The notes: generated by a model not told the origin, from the letters alone. A stretch of 20,000 nucleotides of DNA from an uncultured virus (IMG/VR IMGVR_UViG_3300044624_001347) (IMGVR_UViG_3300044624_001347); one strand, 5' to 3'. Positions 2,368 to 18,890 are shown, counted from the stretch's first letter. Made by a program: numbers and translations.

Positions 2368-2652
2368 GGCGATCTCCTCCATAATGGAGGCATAGCCAGC
2401 GATATCAACGTGGCTGTCTTGGTGGCCCGGCGAGTGCATCAGCCGGGCTACCTTCACCAGCAGCATCATCATGGCCGCGTCGTAGGCGTTGATCTCGGGA
2501 CTGTCGTAGTTGGGGTTCTTGCGGCTCTCCACCATCCAGTAGGTCCAGAGGGCAGCAATTCTCTTGTGGTTCTCCGTCTTGTCGCCGTAGTCCTCGGCGC
2601 GCTGACCGCCAACGAGTTCGGCTGCGTGAAGCAGCATATCAGAAGCTTTCAT
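2347..2652 (-). CDS. DUF6378-like phage protein
   Basis: Start reassigned to MKASDMLL. The pattern 'GQRAEDYGD..NHKRIAALW...MMLLVKVAR...HQDSHVDIAGYA' is typical of this family. Confidence 0.75.
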   Translation of the reverse strand: MKASDMLLHAAELVGGQRAEDYGDKTENHKRIAALWTYWMVESRKNPNYDSPEINAYDAAMMMLLVKVARLMHSPGHQDSHVDIAGYASIMEEIANKEPTS

Positions 2653-3070
2653 TCTCAAACCTCTCCTTGAGTTCCTTGAAGCGTTCACGGGCCTGTCTGT
2701 TATCTTTGAGTTCTGCCCTACTCTCCACCTCACAGAATGCTTTGAGCCCTTCGGTGCATTCCTGCTCTGAGGTGCCGAAGGCATAGCCGTTGTCCATCAT
2801 CCACTTCTGGAACTTGATGTTGCGGCAGAGCATGCCTGCGGACTGAACGGCGCGCTCGCCGTCTTCCATGTCCTTGCCTTTGACGGGCCGGTCATGGTCA
2901 TCGACGGGCAGCATTCCGACCATGTATCGCGTGCCGGGCCGGGCGGCGAGAAGATCGACCGGCACTTCATCCGGGTGGATGGTCAGGGTCATGTATGTCC
3001 CTTTTCCATCCTGCCGCATGGATGTCTTGATCGCCTCGAACTTCAGCCAAGGCTGTTTGGGTTCTGCCAT
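2639..3070 (-). CDS. Conserved phage hypothetical protein
   Basis: 143-aa ORF with an AAAGG RBS that overlaps the next gene. Contains 'AGMLCRNIKFQKWM...CEVESRAEL'. Confidence 0.75.
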   Translation of the reverse strand: MAEPKQPWLKFEAIKTSMRQDGKGTYMTLTIHPDEVPVDLLAARPGTRYMVGMLPVDDHDRPVKGKDMEDGERAVQSAGMLCRNIKFQKWMMDNGYAFGTSEQECTEGLKAFCEVESRAELKDNRQARERFKELKERFENESF

Positions 3071-3094
3071 TCTAGACCTTTCGTTCGCTTTTCA

Positions 3095-4114
3095 TGGCGC
3101 TCTCGGACGTGATGCCTCTCTCAACTCCGATGGTACTCTCAAGGCACTTGGATCACTTCCTCAAATTGGAGCTCTCTGCATCAGTGGTTCACTTGTCGAT
3201 TATGGAACTCTCGTCTGCGATGGTTCACTCGTGATCGCTGGAACTCTCGGCCTCAATGGCTCACTCATTGTCTATGGAACTCTCCACTGTGATGGTTCAC
3301 TCTCAGGGTGCGGAACTCTCTACCCGGATGGTTCACTCAGGGGCCTAGGCGCTCTCGCTAGACTTGGTTCACTCCTTCGTAATGGAACTCTCCGAACCAG
3401 TGGTTCACTCACTTACGATGGAACTCTTGACGACGATGGTTCACTCCGGCGGGATGGTACTCTTACGCCTAATGGATCACTCCAGTCTTCTGGAACTCTA
3501 CCTTGGTAGTGGTTCGATCTTAGACCGTGGAACTCTCTGGTCTCATGTCTCACTCAGGAACGTTGGCGCTCTCTGTCAGTGCGGTTCACTCTCGAACGAT
3601 GGAACTCTCCCTATGGTTGGTTCACTCCCTCCTTTTGGCGCTCTCTGGTCAATTGATTCACTCCCGAAAACTGGAACTCTCGTAAGTCATGGTTCGATCC
3701 GTGCTATGGCGCTGTCGCATTCCAAGTCTCGTTCGGGCCATATGGAACTCTCCTACGGTTTGACTCGCTCGATTACCATGAAGCTATCTTAGGCACTGGC
3801 TCACTCTGCTACGGTGGCACACTTATGTAGCGTGGTTCACTCCGACGACGCGGCACTCTCGCTTTCAATGGTTCACTCTCCACACTAGGCACTCTCATGC
3901 TCAGTGGTTCACTCGCAGTGGTTGAGACTCTTTCGTACCTTGGTTCACTTTTCGTCTGTGGAACTCTCAGCCATGATGGTTCACTCACGCGAGATGGCGC
4001 TCTCTCATATGTTGGTTCGTTCGTCGCTTGTGGAACTCTCGCGCCGCCTAGACTCACTCACTCGTCCTGGGACTTTCTTTTTCGTCTGGTTCGCTTTCCG
4101 TTTCTGGTACTCTC
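3095..4114 (-). ncRNA. TIGR-like tandem interspaced guide RNA array (28 x 36-nt dual-repeat/dual-spacer units)
   Basis: On the + strand, TGGAACTCTC-type repeats (29 copies: 3095, 3131, 3167 ... 4105) alternate with TGGTTCACTC-type repeats (28 copies: 3113, 3149, 3185 ... 4087) at an 18-nt pitch. The 56 spacers are all different (8 nt, except four of 7 or 9 nt). In the sense of the adjacent gene the unit reads GAGAGUUCCA-N8-GAGUGAACCA-N8. Strand is inferred from the operon direction. Confidence 0.9.
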
Positions 4115-4126
4115 CTGAAAGTTGAC

Positions 4127-4948
4127 TTAGCTCATCGGCCAGTTAGGCGGCGCGATGTAGTGGGCATGGCCCATGTGGGTCAGCACATACGGCTTGGGCG
4201 GCTTCTCGCCCGTCTGCACTTCCCACCAGACATGGTGAAGGTGCGAGAGGAACAGCTTCACCGCGTACCGCTTGGCTCGCGCATGAATGTGGGCAGGGGG
4301 CAGCATCTGCTGCTCGTAGAACTTCTTGGCCTGGGTATCAGCGCCAAACCGCTTCTTGCCCAGGATGGCGATGGCCTGCTCCGAGAACTCAAGCTTCTCG
4401 TTGCGAGCGGCCTCGATCTCCTTCCGCTCCTTGTAGACCTTGCCGTAGATGTCCTTCTCGTTTCCAGACACCTTCACGAAGCTCTCGCCAATCTTCCAGC
4501 ACAGCGTCTTGAGGCGAGCGTTCCAAGGACGCTTCTGCCCCTTCTCCCAGGTCTGGGTCGGATCAAGACCGGCATAGCGCCAGATGTGGCCCACGGTCGG
4601 AGCCTTGGTGATGTCGATGTGAGCCAGCAGACCAGCCGAGATGACGGGGCCAATGCCGACGATGGAGCGCGCCCAGGAGCCAACCTGATTGGAGCCGCTA
4701 TACGCATCCAGCGCACGGGCCACTTGCTTCTCAAGAACCTCACGCTGATCCATCAGCCACGTCATCACATCGGCGGGCTCCCCGGATTCAGTCAGACTGC
4801 GATGCTGGTGGGCGGCGCGAATGCGGTCCTCCTGCATGGCGTAATAGGCGTCCACAAGGAAGCGCGCCTCGTCGCTCGACAGTGTGCGGGCGGCGCTCTT
4901 CAGGTCTTTGGTCAGCCGGATGACCGGCATCAGGTCTATGTCACTCAT
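4127..4948 (-). CDS. tasA: TasA-like Nop-domain (IS110-related) RNA-binding protein, nuclease-less
   Basis: Start reassigned to MSDIDL (RBS GGAGAG; 273 aa). An N-terminal coiled coil 'LVDAYYAMQEDRIRAAHQ' is followed by 'SIVGIGPVISAGLLAHID...IWRYAGLDP', 'WNARLKTLCWKIGESFVK', 'YGKVYKERK' and 'HIHARAKRYAVKLFLSHL'. No N-terminal DEDD/RuvC or HNH domain is visible, nor the IS110 'SG' catalytic serine loop. The gene abuts the 36-nt array. Confidence 0.85.
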   Translation of the reverse strand: MSDIDLMPVIRLTKDLKSAARTLSSDEARFLVDAYYAMQEDRIRAAHQHRSLTESGEPADVMTWLMDQREVLEKQVARALDAYSGSNQVGSWARSIVGIGPVISAGLLAHIDITKAPTVGHIWRYAGLDPTQTWEKGQKRPWNARLKTLCWKIGESFVKVSGNEKDIYGKVYKERKEIEAARNEKLEFSEQAIAILGKKRFGADTQAKKFYEQQMLPPAHIHARAKRYAVKLFLSHLHHVWWEVQTGEKPPKPYVLTHMGHAHYIAPPNWPMS

Positions 4949-4973
4949 TTGTTCTCTCCGTGGTTCTTGGTAT

Positions 4974-4989
4974 GGGGGCTTTCGCCCCC
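4974..4989 (-). other. GNRA-tetraloop hairpin in the leader of tasA
   Basis: Minus strand GGGGGC-GAAA-GCCCCC, with no U-tract, 25 nt upstream of the ATG. Confidence 0.55.
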
Positions 4990-4994
4990 ACCCA

Positions 4995-5225
4995 TTAGCC
5001 CACCCGCCAGACGCGGATGTGCGTGTCGCTCTCCTGGGCCGCACGGAACGAGCCGTCGATCCCACAGTTGCGGATGAAGTTACGCATAGACGGCAGCTTG
5101 TACTCAACGCGGAAGCTGTCACCCACATTCATGGCATTCATGGTGGCGATCATGGCTTCACGCTTCTTCGACTTGCGGCCCATGTAGTTACGCGGAACAG
5201 GGACGCCTTTCTCAATCTCGAACAT
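4995..5225 (-). CDS. Small conserved phage protein (possible DNA-binding)
   Basis: 'MFEIEKGVPVP...MNVGDSF...IRVWRV' pattern common in phage early regions; RBS GGAGA. Confidence 0.7.
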   Translation of the reverse strand: MFEIEKGVPVPRNYMGRKSKKREAMIATMNAMNVGDSFRVEYKLPSMRNFIRNCGIDGSFRAAQESDTHIRVWRVG

Positions 5226-5385
5226 CAACAATCTCCGTAATTACTGCATAGACCTTGGCGTCGCCGCGTTCGGTCCAAACCGCTCCATGCAGACCAACTT
5301 CGTCCCCGACCTTCCAATTCTGCCCATCAGCACGGGGCAGAACGTCAACTTCACGCATGATCTGTCCCGCATAGTGCGGGTTCAT
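5212..5385 (-). CDS. Hypothetical protein
   Basis: 57 aa from MNPHYAG; ATGA overlap with the upstream gene. Confidence 0.55.
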   Translation of the reverse strand: MNPHYAGQIMREVDVLPRADGQNWKVGDEVGLHGAVWTERGDAKVYAVITEIVDVRD

Positions 5386-7066: not shown

Positions 7067-7432
7067 TCAGCTTTCGATGAGTGCCGCAAGCCTAGGAGGC
7101 GTCCATCCTTCAGGCTTCAAGATTTTTCCATCGGCGCGCTTTTTCACAAAGCCGGTCTCAGGATCAACCTTTGCCATATTAGACCGGATCACTTCTCTCC
7201 ATCCAGCCTCAAGCGGAAGACCGGCAGAGTGTCCTGCCCCAATGCACACGACGATGATGTCGAGAAGTGCGTCAAAAATCTCTGCCTTGTTTCTCTCTGC
7301 GACAGCCTCGAAGAGTTCCGTCATCTCTTCCATGATGAGACCGACATAGAGCGCGGTCTGCTCTTCGTTCATCCTGCCGACCGTCTGGCCGCAGGCCAGC
7401 ATGAACTTGGCCTGTTCTTCAAACACGTTCAT
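7067..7432 (-). CDS. MazG-like all-alpha NTP pyrophosphohydrolase
   Basis: 'LIMEEMTELFEA...EIFDALLDIIVV...VIRSNMAKVD...RADGKILKPEGW'; TAATG coupling to the upstream gene. Confidence 0.85.
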   Translation of the reverse strand: MNVFEEQAKFMLACGQTVGRMNEEQTALYVGLIMEEMTELFEAVAERNKAEIFDALLDIIVVCIGAGHSAGLPLEAGWREVIRSNMAKVDPETGFVKKRADGKILKPEGWTPPRLAALIES

Positions 7433-7680
7433 TAGGAAGTAAGCTCCTTCACCGTCCACATAATGCTCTCTTCAAGGGCAGTGATGCCAAGGGAGCGATA
7501 GCGCCCAGGCTTCACCTGTTCGATCAAAGCCTCAAGCTCGGAAGCCTTCGACTTGATGGCATCGTGCAAAGCCTTTTCGCTGTCGGTAAGCGCCCGGTAA
7601 CGGGGCCTAAAGCGGCTCACAGGCTCACTCACGTCGCTCGACTGCCGCCCATCGGGGGCGCCATCAAAGACATGGCTCAT
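7432..7680 (-). CDS. Acb2/Tad1-like anti-defence nucleotide-sponge protein (putative)
   Basis: 'YRALTDSEKALHDAIKSKASELEALIEQVKPGRYRSLGITALEESIMWTVKELT' follows the helical-hairpin pattern recalled for Acb2 (YRxLS..E.......K.......LI...PGR...IG.T) and Tad1 (A.T.LEE..MW). Confidence 0.65.
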   Translation of the reverse strand: MSHVFDGAPDGRQSSDVSEPVSRFRPRYRALTDSEKALHDAIKSKASELEALIEQVKPGRYRSLGITALEESIMWTVKELTS

Positions 7681-7682
7681 AG

Positions 7683-7907
7683 TCAAACTCCCTTCTTCCT
7701 CGTCAGCTTGCCCAGCATGATCTCCCCACCGGGCGACAGGGGAACCTTCTCCACCGACAGCACATGGTCTGGCAGGAGGTCGTCAATGTTCTGCAACTCA
7801 TGAACGGGGAGGGTGAAGGACCACCGATCCCCGATCCTCGTGGCGAACTTCTTGAAGTCCGTCTCGCTGAAGTCAGCCAAGCAGTTGGCCGTCTCGTGTT
7901 CGCTCAT
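7683..7907 (-). CDS. Hypothetical protein
   Basis: 74 aa, RBS AGGAAGAAGG, in operon. Confidence 0.6.
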   Translation of the reverse strand: MSEHETANCLADFSETDFKKFATRIGDRWSFTLPVHELQNIDDLLPDHVLSVEKVPLSPGGEIMLGKLTRKKGV

Positions 7908-18428: not shown

Positions 18429-18669
18429 GGTCTGATTCCTTGAGCGCGATGCGCGCGATGTTCTGCAACTCTCCGGAAAAGCTGGCCCACTTCATTGCGT
18501 ATATGTGCATCGGCCAGTTCGGCCCTTCTCCTTCCTCGTCTAGTGGTATTTGGACGCCACCTTCAGCGATCTCCCGGAGTGCATTCCTCAGCCGCTCTAT
18601 CTCGTCGGCAGCTTCTTCATGGAGAAAGTCTGCGTTGGTCAGCCGCAGTCGGTCCACGATATCAGTCAC
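18421..18669 (-). CDS. Hypothetical protein, 'TDIV.RLR' family
   Basis: GTG start; 'EAADEIERLRNAL'. Confidence 0.7.
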   Translation of the reverse strand: MTDIVDRLRLTNADFLHEEAADEIERLRNALREIAEGGVQIPLDEEGEGPNWPMHIYAMKWASFSGELQNIARIALKESDRD

Positions 18670-18890
18670 TGCTTGTCTCCCCGAGTGCGATACGAAGCTC
18701 TTGAGCGGCGTACTTCAGCGCCTTTGGTCCTCCGTCCTCAATCTCGGACAGTGCATGGCGGATGCCGTTCCGTAGCCGCTCGATCTCGTCGGCAGCTTCG
18801 GCAGCATCCTGCCGAGTCCATCCGTCGCTTCTCCACGCATGAACACGCAACCGCTCCACGATATCAGTCACTGCCTGTCTCCCCGAGTGC
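18653..18890. repeat. 36-bp direct repeat at consecutive gene junctions
   Basis: TCCACGATATCAGTCACTGC(T/C)TGTCTCCCCGAGTGC at 18653-18688 and 18855-18890 (35/36 identical). A 15-bp core recurs at 18414-18428. Confidence 0.85.
18662..18871 (-). CDS. Hypothetical protein, 'TDIV.RLR' family
   Basis: GTG start; 'EAADEIERLRNGI'. Confidence 0.7.
   Translation of the reverse strand: MTDIVERLRVHAWRSDGWTRQDAAEAADEIERLRNGIRHALSEIEDGGPKALKYAAQELRIALGETSSD

Follow-up and report, generated by a model that had tools for sequence, protein, structure and literature searches.

The window analysed here, a stretch of 20,000 nucleotides, belongs to a virus record of 48,151 bases that carries genes for portal, terminase, tail fibre, primase/helicase, ERF and RusA as well as MazG-like and Acb2/Tad1-family genes. 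The 24 listed sequencing runs with this phage, with ten possible sources, are all of lake-water DNA and none is of RNA. In the early/recombination operon of this tailed phage lies a cassette of two parts: a gene for a protein of 273 amino acids, tasA, followed by a long array of short repeats on the same strand (Table 1).

Table 1. Features of the tasA cassette and its flanks (window coordinates) and related features at other loci (L numbers)
Feature	Position	Strand	Remarks
tasA, 273 aa, solo Nop-domain protein (coiled coil and C-terminal domain), no RuvC/HNH	4127..4948	-	assigned from sequence and fold matches
Ribosome-binding site GGAGAG	4954..4959	-	5 nt before the tasA ATG
Codons of Y254 and H261	4166..4189	-	aligned with SpTasH Y289 and H296
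Dual-repeat TIGR array	3082..4127	-	29 predicted 36-nt tigRNAs, first 4127-4092, last 3117-3082
5' half edge repeat	4123..4127	-	starts at the final base of the tasA stop codon
3' half edge repeat	3082..3085	-	next gene starts 11 nt further
78-aa gene, upstream flank of the slot, outside the system	4995..5231	-
143-aa gene, downstream flank of the slot, outside the system	2639..3070	-
GAAA-tetraloop hairpin, upstream slot edge	4968..4994	-	z -3.7; 0 of 200 shuffles as stable
Unit kept in two array groups	L092 unit 15, L093 unit 18, L095 unit 21, L050 and L006 unit 13
VIPR-like genes upstream of tasA	L163:6700-10408; L168:2874-5184; L173:9300-14070		TIGR arrays in L163 and L173

The array contains 57 repeats of ten nucleotides, which lie between 4114 and 3095 on the minus strand and alternate strictly between two types (29 copies of GAGAGTTCCA and 28 of GAGTGAACCA); 56 of them match their consensus with at most three mismatches. 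Both the strict alternation and the start of the array 12 nt past the stop codon of the 273-aa open reading frame had been described in the initial annotation and are confirmed: with up to three mismatches allowed, the longest alternating chain has 35 repeats in the array, but at most 3 in 200 shuffled sequences and 2 elsewhere in the window. In this ten-nucleotide parse the 56 inter-repeat spacers are mostly 8 nt long (52, plus three of 9 nt and one of 7 nt). The first base of the ten-mer is G or A, however (46 G and 8 A in the column counts, n=54), and the published parse into a 9-nt repeat and a 9-nt spacer therefore applies: the repeat then consists of box D (AG), a 4-nt gap and box C (CCA), with the same boxes in both repeat types and the consensus AG-UG/AA-CCA for the edge and AG-AGUU-CCA for the loop repeat. 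AG had seemed unusual as a box D (2493 AG versus 18 TG in the clade) and turned out to be the same as the SpTIGR form.

Because half edge repeats close the array at both ends, it holds 29 units of 36 nt and 58 distinct spacers (54 of 9 nt, three of 10 nt and one of 8 nt). The 56 spacers of about 8 nt that had been annotated are thus correct for the intervals between the 57 repeats, to which the half edges add two, but the annotated number of 28 units has to be given up: the 28-unit reading omits the two end spacers, and if pairing began at the first full repeat, it would combine spacers that do not belong to one guide. The corrected phase decides which spacers form one guide and is needed for any target search. 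The spacer behind the 5' half edge differs between the window and the closely related locus L003.

In published tigRNAs, the front half of one edge repeat pairs with the back half of the preceding edge repeat, across units. When the repeats of the AGUGAACCA type were compared in this way, 53 of 58 positions were Watson-Crick pairs, compared to 34.5 on permutation, and none of 100,000 permutations reached 53. Control pairings gave no excess, neither within one repeat of the AGUGAACCA type (36 versus 35.0) nor with the other type (40 versus 38.9 and 38 versus 37.9); AGUGAACCA is the edge repeat. The same covariation is present across 115 distinct arrays of the clade, which are related and therefore not independent (3004 versus 2638 expected, of 3240 pairs; 45 arrays above and one below expectation). 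Unit 1 begins with AGUCA and ends with AGCG, exactly the ends of the synthetic SpTasH tigRNA1 (Faure et al., Table S3, PMC12045711). A terminator, typical behind dual-repeat TIGR arrays if not universal, was not found 3' of the array, and there is no stable hairpin at 3040-3100. The promoter scan returned two hits against 1.8 expected, and both matches of an Rfam search were at chance level.

The TasA protein carries the motifs GIGP, YAGLDP and HIHARAKRY, all three as initially annotated. Its best sequence matches in the PDB (phmmer) are TaTasR (E 5e-17) and SpTasH (E 6e-12), and a profile built from 109 of the 120 homologues among the matches listed finds the same two proteins (E 2.5e-23 and 5.6e-12) and, with much lower significance, IS621 (E 4e-4). 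The structural model has a mean pLDDT of 90 and is all-helical from residue 7. In the fold search, a check that had been proposed with the annotation for Nop, IS110 and Tas structures, the ten best matches are all TasH or TasR chains (E 1e-7 to 2e-6) and IS110 enzymes follow from rank 12. According to the profile offsets, the N-terminal stretch of approximately 50-100 residues in which TasH, TasR and IS621 carry their nuclease is missing from TasA: profile position 39 corresponds to TaTasR 124, position 61 to SpTasH 108 and position 30 to IS621 residue 134. Together with the helical model this agrees with the earlier assignment to the nuclease-less TasA class. The two residues aligned with the guide-processing residues Y289 and H296 of SpTasH differ in conservation over the 109 rows of the profile: H261 is invariant, and Y254 is the majority residue in fewer than 90%. 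The C-terminal loop that contains them is poorly modelled (pLDDT below 50 at 255-261).

Pfam (Transposase_20, E 1e-4) and PHROGs (phrog_4285, E 1e-60) both label TasA as a transposase, the mislabelling that had been foreseen. These labels, and the profile match to IS621, are what one would expect of a truncated IS110 transposase next to an unrelated repeat. But the Tas matches are far stronger than any to IS110; the catalytic RuvC-like (DEDD) domain at the N-terminus of IS110 enzymes is absent, as seen from the alignment of profile position 30 with IS621 residue 134; and a search restricted to near-equal length found more than 7000 relatives, which among the matches listed are nearly all full-length, mostly with 265-300 amino acids (the seven closest other clusters listed have 273 as well). 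The fold ranking and the linkage to the array described below refute the transposase reading, and it is the least credible of all readings considered here. The protein is already known, since Faure et al. 2025 list a sequence identical to TasA as part of cluster node1191 (their Table S1, rows 185 and 219; PMC12045711). In the genome collection, tasA has two loci, with 60 and 67% identity; cultured phages have only distant Tas relatives (Microcystis phage Mvi-JY20, Salicola phage CGphi29), and in five sister records, all fragments that are 30-68% complete, no TasA was found.

Association of the gene with an array is the rule: a profile-based chain finder detected an array within 4 kb and on the same strand in 96 of 117 distinct tasA loci and on the opposite strand in none; in 24 loci without tasA, including the rest of the phage's own genome, it detected no array. 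Homologues that consistently lack arrays would have spoken against the annotation, and the 96 linked loci show the opposite. The 21 tasA loci with no array detected include contig ends, arrays with fewer than five repeats and a group of loci (L045-L058) with 45-52% identity to TasA. Most loci of this group gave no array with the repeat profile used; they may have different repeats or stem-loop arrays.

The array could also be read on the plus strand, where an open frame of 213 amino acids (2868-3509) would encode a protein with a 6-residue repeat and the array would be incidental. The frame has a weak match (phrog_36982, E 6e-4) and stop codons are mildly depleted, both in the window (1 versus 4.0, P 0.06) and in the clade (164 versus 188, P about 0.01). 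However, the depleted triplets are TCA, CTA and TTA on the guide strand, which may be disfavoured as spurious box C motifs; in addition, the register is lost at four spacers with a length of 8 or 10 nt, neighbouring edge repeats covary at the nucleotide level and arrays are confined to the tasA strand. We regard a repeat protein as very unlikely. With the TasR and TasH matches in sequence and fold, the missing nuclease, the array linkage and the catalogue entry all in agreement, it is close to certain that the locus is TIGR-TasA, as first proposed; family, class and exact protein are already published.

Among the known systems, the dual-repeat TIGR-TasA systems (for example FpTasA; Faure et al., Science 2025, PMC12045711) are most alike: they too have a solo Nop protein, 36-nt units, 9-nt spacers, edge repeats cut short at both array ends and a location in phages. 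With 29 units, the array of the window exceeds the published 'most often 5 to 15'; arrays of relatives reach more than 90 repeats, and a later survey counted 65,635 guides in 4,126 dual-repeat arrays. The best fold match, SpTIGR-TasH (PDB 9W03, 9W04, 21KL), comes from Salicola phage CGphi29; it has in common with our locus the box D AG, the guide ends, a purine at the ninth spacer base, 16 variable nucleotides and the aligned Y/H processing residues. However, SpTasH has an HNH nuclease and cuts DNA, whereas TasA of the window begins at the coiled coil; the two are only about 21-30% identical and the ninth spacer base is A in two SpTasH guides and mostly G here. TaTIGR-TasR (PDB 9MTY), the best sequence match, has the same unit plan and edge pairing but a RuvC nuclease and UG as box D. 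The IS110 bridge recombinases (IS621, ISCro4) have the Nop-like RNA-binding domain in common with TasA and differ by an N-terminal RuvC-like domain and a single bridge RNA; our locus has neither, and many short guides instead.

The stop codon of tasA overlaps the first half edge repeat (window 4123-4129). This arrangement is not restricted to our phage: of 55 distinct tasA loci with an array at most 60 nt from the stop codon, 26, our own included, have a box C that starts 3 or 4 nt downstream of the first stop-codon base, a count that is inflated by shared ancestry. All three stop codons, TAA, TAG and TGA, are used in overlap loci, and the repeat itself offers TGA. Published tigRNA ends place the cut two bases before box C (PMC12045711); since the half edge shares the last base of the stop, the first cut is predicted to fall inside the tasA stop codon. 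A cut at this position would leave a tasA mRNA without a stop codon, possibly creating a feedback on TasA levels. Minimal arrays in the published experiments needed full edges, and the truncated edge may not be cut.

The cassette occupies a defined slot between the two flanking genes. Of 14 loci in which the slot was inspected, four contain TIGR-TasA (two with both flanks visible), seven are empty, one (L069) contains a VIPR-like cassette and two are uninformative. In the five empty slots that were measured, 55-81 nt separate the flanks. The TIGR-TasA cassette is optional, and its boundaries enclose tasA and the array only. These boundaries bear on the proposal, found in the literature as a possibility for TasA, that the protein guides a partner enzyme to its target, for instance an integrase, a recombinase or a nearby HNH-like protein. 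The operon does have candidates (ERF, an SSB-like protein, RusA, a PD-(D/E)XK protein and an 85-aa DUF968/HNH-like gene), but none lies within the cassette and both the 85-aa gene and ERF occur in phages with an empty slot too; a partner enzyme is improbable. The GAAA-tetraloop hairpin listed in Table 1 has similar counterparts in TIGR, VIPR-like and empty alleles and could be a terminator, a stabiliser or a recombination anchor.

The VIPR-like cassette of 1.7 kb sits exactly where the window has its TIGR-TasA cassette (L067:19199-20903, equivalent to L069:8264-10000; the two loci are the same contig, so that the swap is known from one contig) and belongs to a phage that is about 89% identical to the window phage over the early region. 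It contains four tracts with 83 pentamers Y-NN-C-K, a gene for a 198-aa protein with RAMP fold and a 164-aa accessory gene. The model of the 198-aa protein (pLDDT 89) has its best fold matches among subunits of type III and type VII CRISPR complexes (E 2e-6); sequence searches against Pfam and PDB gave nothing useful and a protein atlas returned only unnamed viral clusters. The pentamer motif differs from the GGY/NN of VIPR, and we therefore call the cassette VIPR-like; period and plan fit, and other non-canonical VIPR pentamer motifs are in print. VIPR (10.64898/2026.04.26.720920) is likewise a phage-borne, nuclease-free, RNA-guided silencer and is described as acting against competing phages, but its RAMP fold is unrelated to TasA, it uses a 5-nt repeat code and it is absent from the window. 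Trees built for the two flanks from 12 selected rows place L069 together with the window and L004 (support 97/98 and 97/93); one cassette has therefore replaced the other recently.

The RAMP family has more than 2000 relatives, and the accessory gene is present in 51 of 61 RAMP loci. At three of 57 loci of this family (L165, L168, L173) a tasA gene follows downstream of the RAMP and accessory genes, immediately in two cases and after about 0.8 kb in the third; L163 and L165 are counted together as one case, beside L168 and L173. L173 has many pentamer tracts with a conserved tail behind each. A target search with the four pentamer tracts of L067 (skips of 0-2; set without the last 137 loci) found at best 23-27 matches, the same as with shuffled tracts. 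In the available literature we found no joint treatment of VIPR and TIGR: the relevant paper handles them separately, and the accessible text of two VIPR preprints does not contain the word TIGR.

Closely related strains differ in their arrays. Three loci (L001, L002, L005) have an array identical to that of the window, and four loci with 97-98% identical TasA (L003, L004, L018, L019) have a 23-unit allele; both alleles are present in runs X14, X21 and X24. The 29- and 23-unit alleles have ten units in common and in the same order (window units 9-14, 18, 19, 21 and 29), and strain-specific units are found both at the 5' end and in the interior. Four strains with 90% identity keep the first unit and differ inside, and the three complete ones also keep the last. 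Turnover restricted to the gene-proximal end had been the first impression and was rejected by the full strain comparison: the strains differ by whole internal units and not at one end only. In five strain pairs, which are not independent, spacers stay together across the loop in 51 of 74 cases and across the edge in 23 of 79. Identical spacers of the same type occur 44 times within the arrays of the clade, compared to 0.8 expected, and never in the window's array; this points to unit duplication, to which assembly error could add. Differential loss from a longer ancestor would also explain the internal differences. One unit keeps an identical spacer B across two groups of arrays (L092/L093/L095 and L050/L006; Table 1) that otherwise have hardly anything in common, and is absent from the window; it is a candidate for a conserved target.

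The published oligonucleotides of TaTasR give the target geometry: the sequence of spacer A comes first and that of spacer B follows in reverse complement. Within the phage's own 48-kb record, which is maybe incomplete, no match exceeded those of re-paired guides in two phases, four geometries and three gap settings; the best matches had 3-6 mismatches of 18, with a mean of 4.59 versus 4.71 for re-paired guides. Regulation of the phage's own genes, although listed as a possibility in the literature, is largely refuted by the lack of a clear excess in any phase or geometry, and we consider it highly improbable. Next, 1243 distinct guides (including 25 of the 29 window guides; four with an 8- or 10-nt spacer were left out) were compared with 3.7 Mb and then 6.8 Mb of fetched loci, a small slice of sequence space that is biased to relatives: on both strands none was above the null, and no geometry was above the within-array null. 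The 114 guides of the close clade, 25 of them from the window, had no perfect match and a single match with one mismatch in the 6.8 Mb (null mean 0.7). An apparent excess of 8+8 nt matches without gap (100 versus about 72) vanished with the within-array null (100 versus 89, sd 8.5).

Based on the published relatives, the system would work as follows. An operon transcript would run through tasA into the array, a TasA dimer would bind the box C/D motifs and the loop with Y254 and H261 would cut each edge repeat mid-way, leaving one 36-nt tigRNA bound to TasA. Spacers A and B would then each pair with a different strand of an 18-bp site, with no need of a PAM; as spacer position 9 is nearly always G, about 16 target positions would be free. 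The nuclease-free complex would stay bound and block transcription or replication, presumably of competing phages, satellites or resident prophages, the choice of target being the weakest step. We assign a probability of about 0.6 to this chain as a whole, that is to TIGR-TasA with guide processing and cut-free silencing of competing elements. It is supported by the TasR and TasH matches, the catalogue entry, the edge covariation, the unit ends and the Y/H dyad; counting against it are that no target was above chance, that the VIPR-like swap is on one contig and that no terminator was found. Repression has been shown for a TasA of the stem-loop type, which can silence a chromosomal gene; our locus, in contrast, is of the dual-repeat type, for which binding of 36-nt RNA and weak activator fusions are described.

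The same chemistry could instead serve to silence genes of the host chromosome, for defence or takeover. Several observations would suit such a function: related phages contain no match to the guides above chance, the gene run includes an anti-defence gene of the Acb2/Tad1 family, TasA-type proteins can act on a chromosomal gene and a unit kept across two diverged array groups would fit a slowly changing target. But with only 10 of 29 units in common at 97% TasA identity, turnover is faster than host genes would demand, and a VIPR-like cassette occupies the same slot. Rival elements are the likelier targets, because there is no self-target, guides turn over fast, the cassette is optional and it is exchanged for a VIPR-like system; host genes, the main alternative, are rather unlikely targets. 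We also tentatively suggest a broader model, which in its entirety is doubtful: the slot would hold, interchangeably, TIGR-TasA, a VIPR-like RAMP system or nothing, TasA would silence rivals as VIPR does and limit its own level by the cut in the stop codon, and arrays would be renewed as whole internal units are exchanged or duplicated, not by the CRISPR-like addition of units at one end.

In the available portions of the literature covered (PMC12045711; PMC13421893; 10.64898/2026.09.09.750476; 10.64898/2026.08.11.744272; 10.64898/2026.07.30.739390; 10.64898/2026.07.30.739400; 10.64898/2026.10.21.760802; 10.64898/2026.04.26.720920; 10.64898/2026.10.15.759431) we found neither the optional cassette with its VIPR-like swap, nor internal unit differences between strains, nor the overlap of a stop codon with a TIGR edge repeat. 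Preprint supplements or TIGRSafari may already annotate the array or some of the side results. The same literature states as open questions what the natural targets are, what TasA does without a nuclease and how arrays gain units. As material for these, the locus offers two co-occurring array alleles, a further four strains with 90% identity, alleles without any cassette and a sister phage whose slot is filled by a VIPR-like system; this set permits direct tests of unit gain and loss and of whether the two systems, TIGR-TasA and VIPR, have a common purpose.

Four minor observations concern the surroundings of the system. The Acb2/Tad1 hairpin-domain gene (window 7432-7686, minus strand; PF24729, E 1e-14) lies in the same gene run as tasA and its product is likely an anti-CBASS/Thoeris sponge; the alignment with the sister phage L067 has a gap over this gene. 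At 2-2350 on the plus strand, convergent to the early operon, the window codes for the last part of a large protein that has an LPD38 polyvalent-protein domain and whose start is found in L064. In a relative with 81% identity, about 330 nt with apparently a small open reading frame (L006:2893-3219) lie between tasA and the array. Finally, self-matches of the window revealed a direct repeat of 45 nt at the starts of small genes (18589-18694 and 18846-18890).
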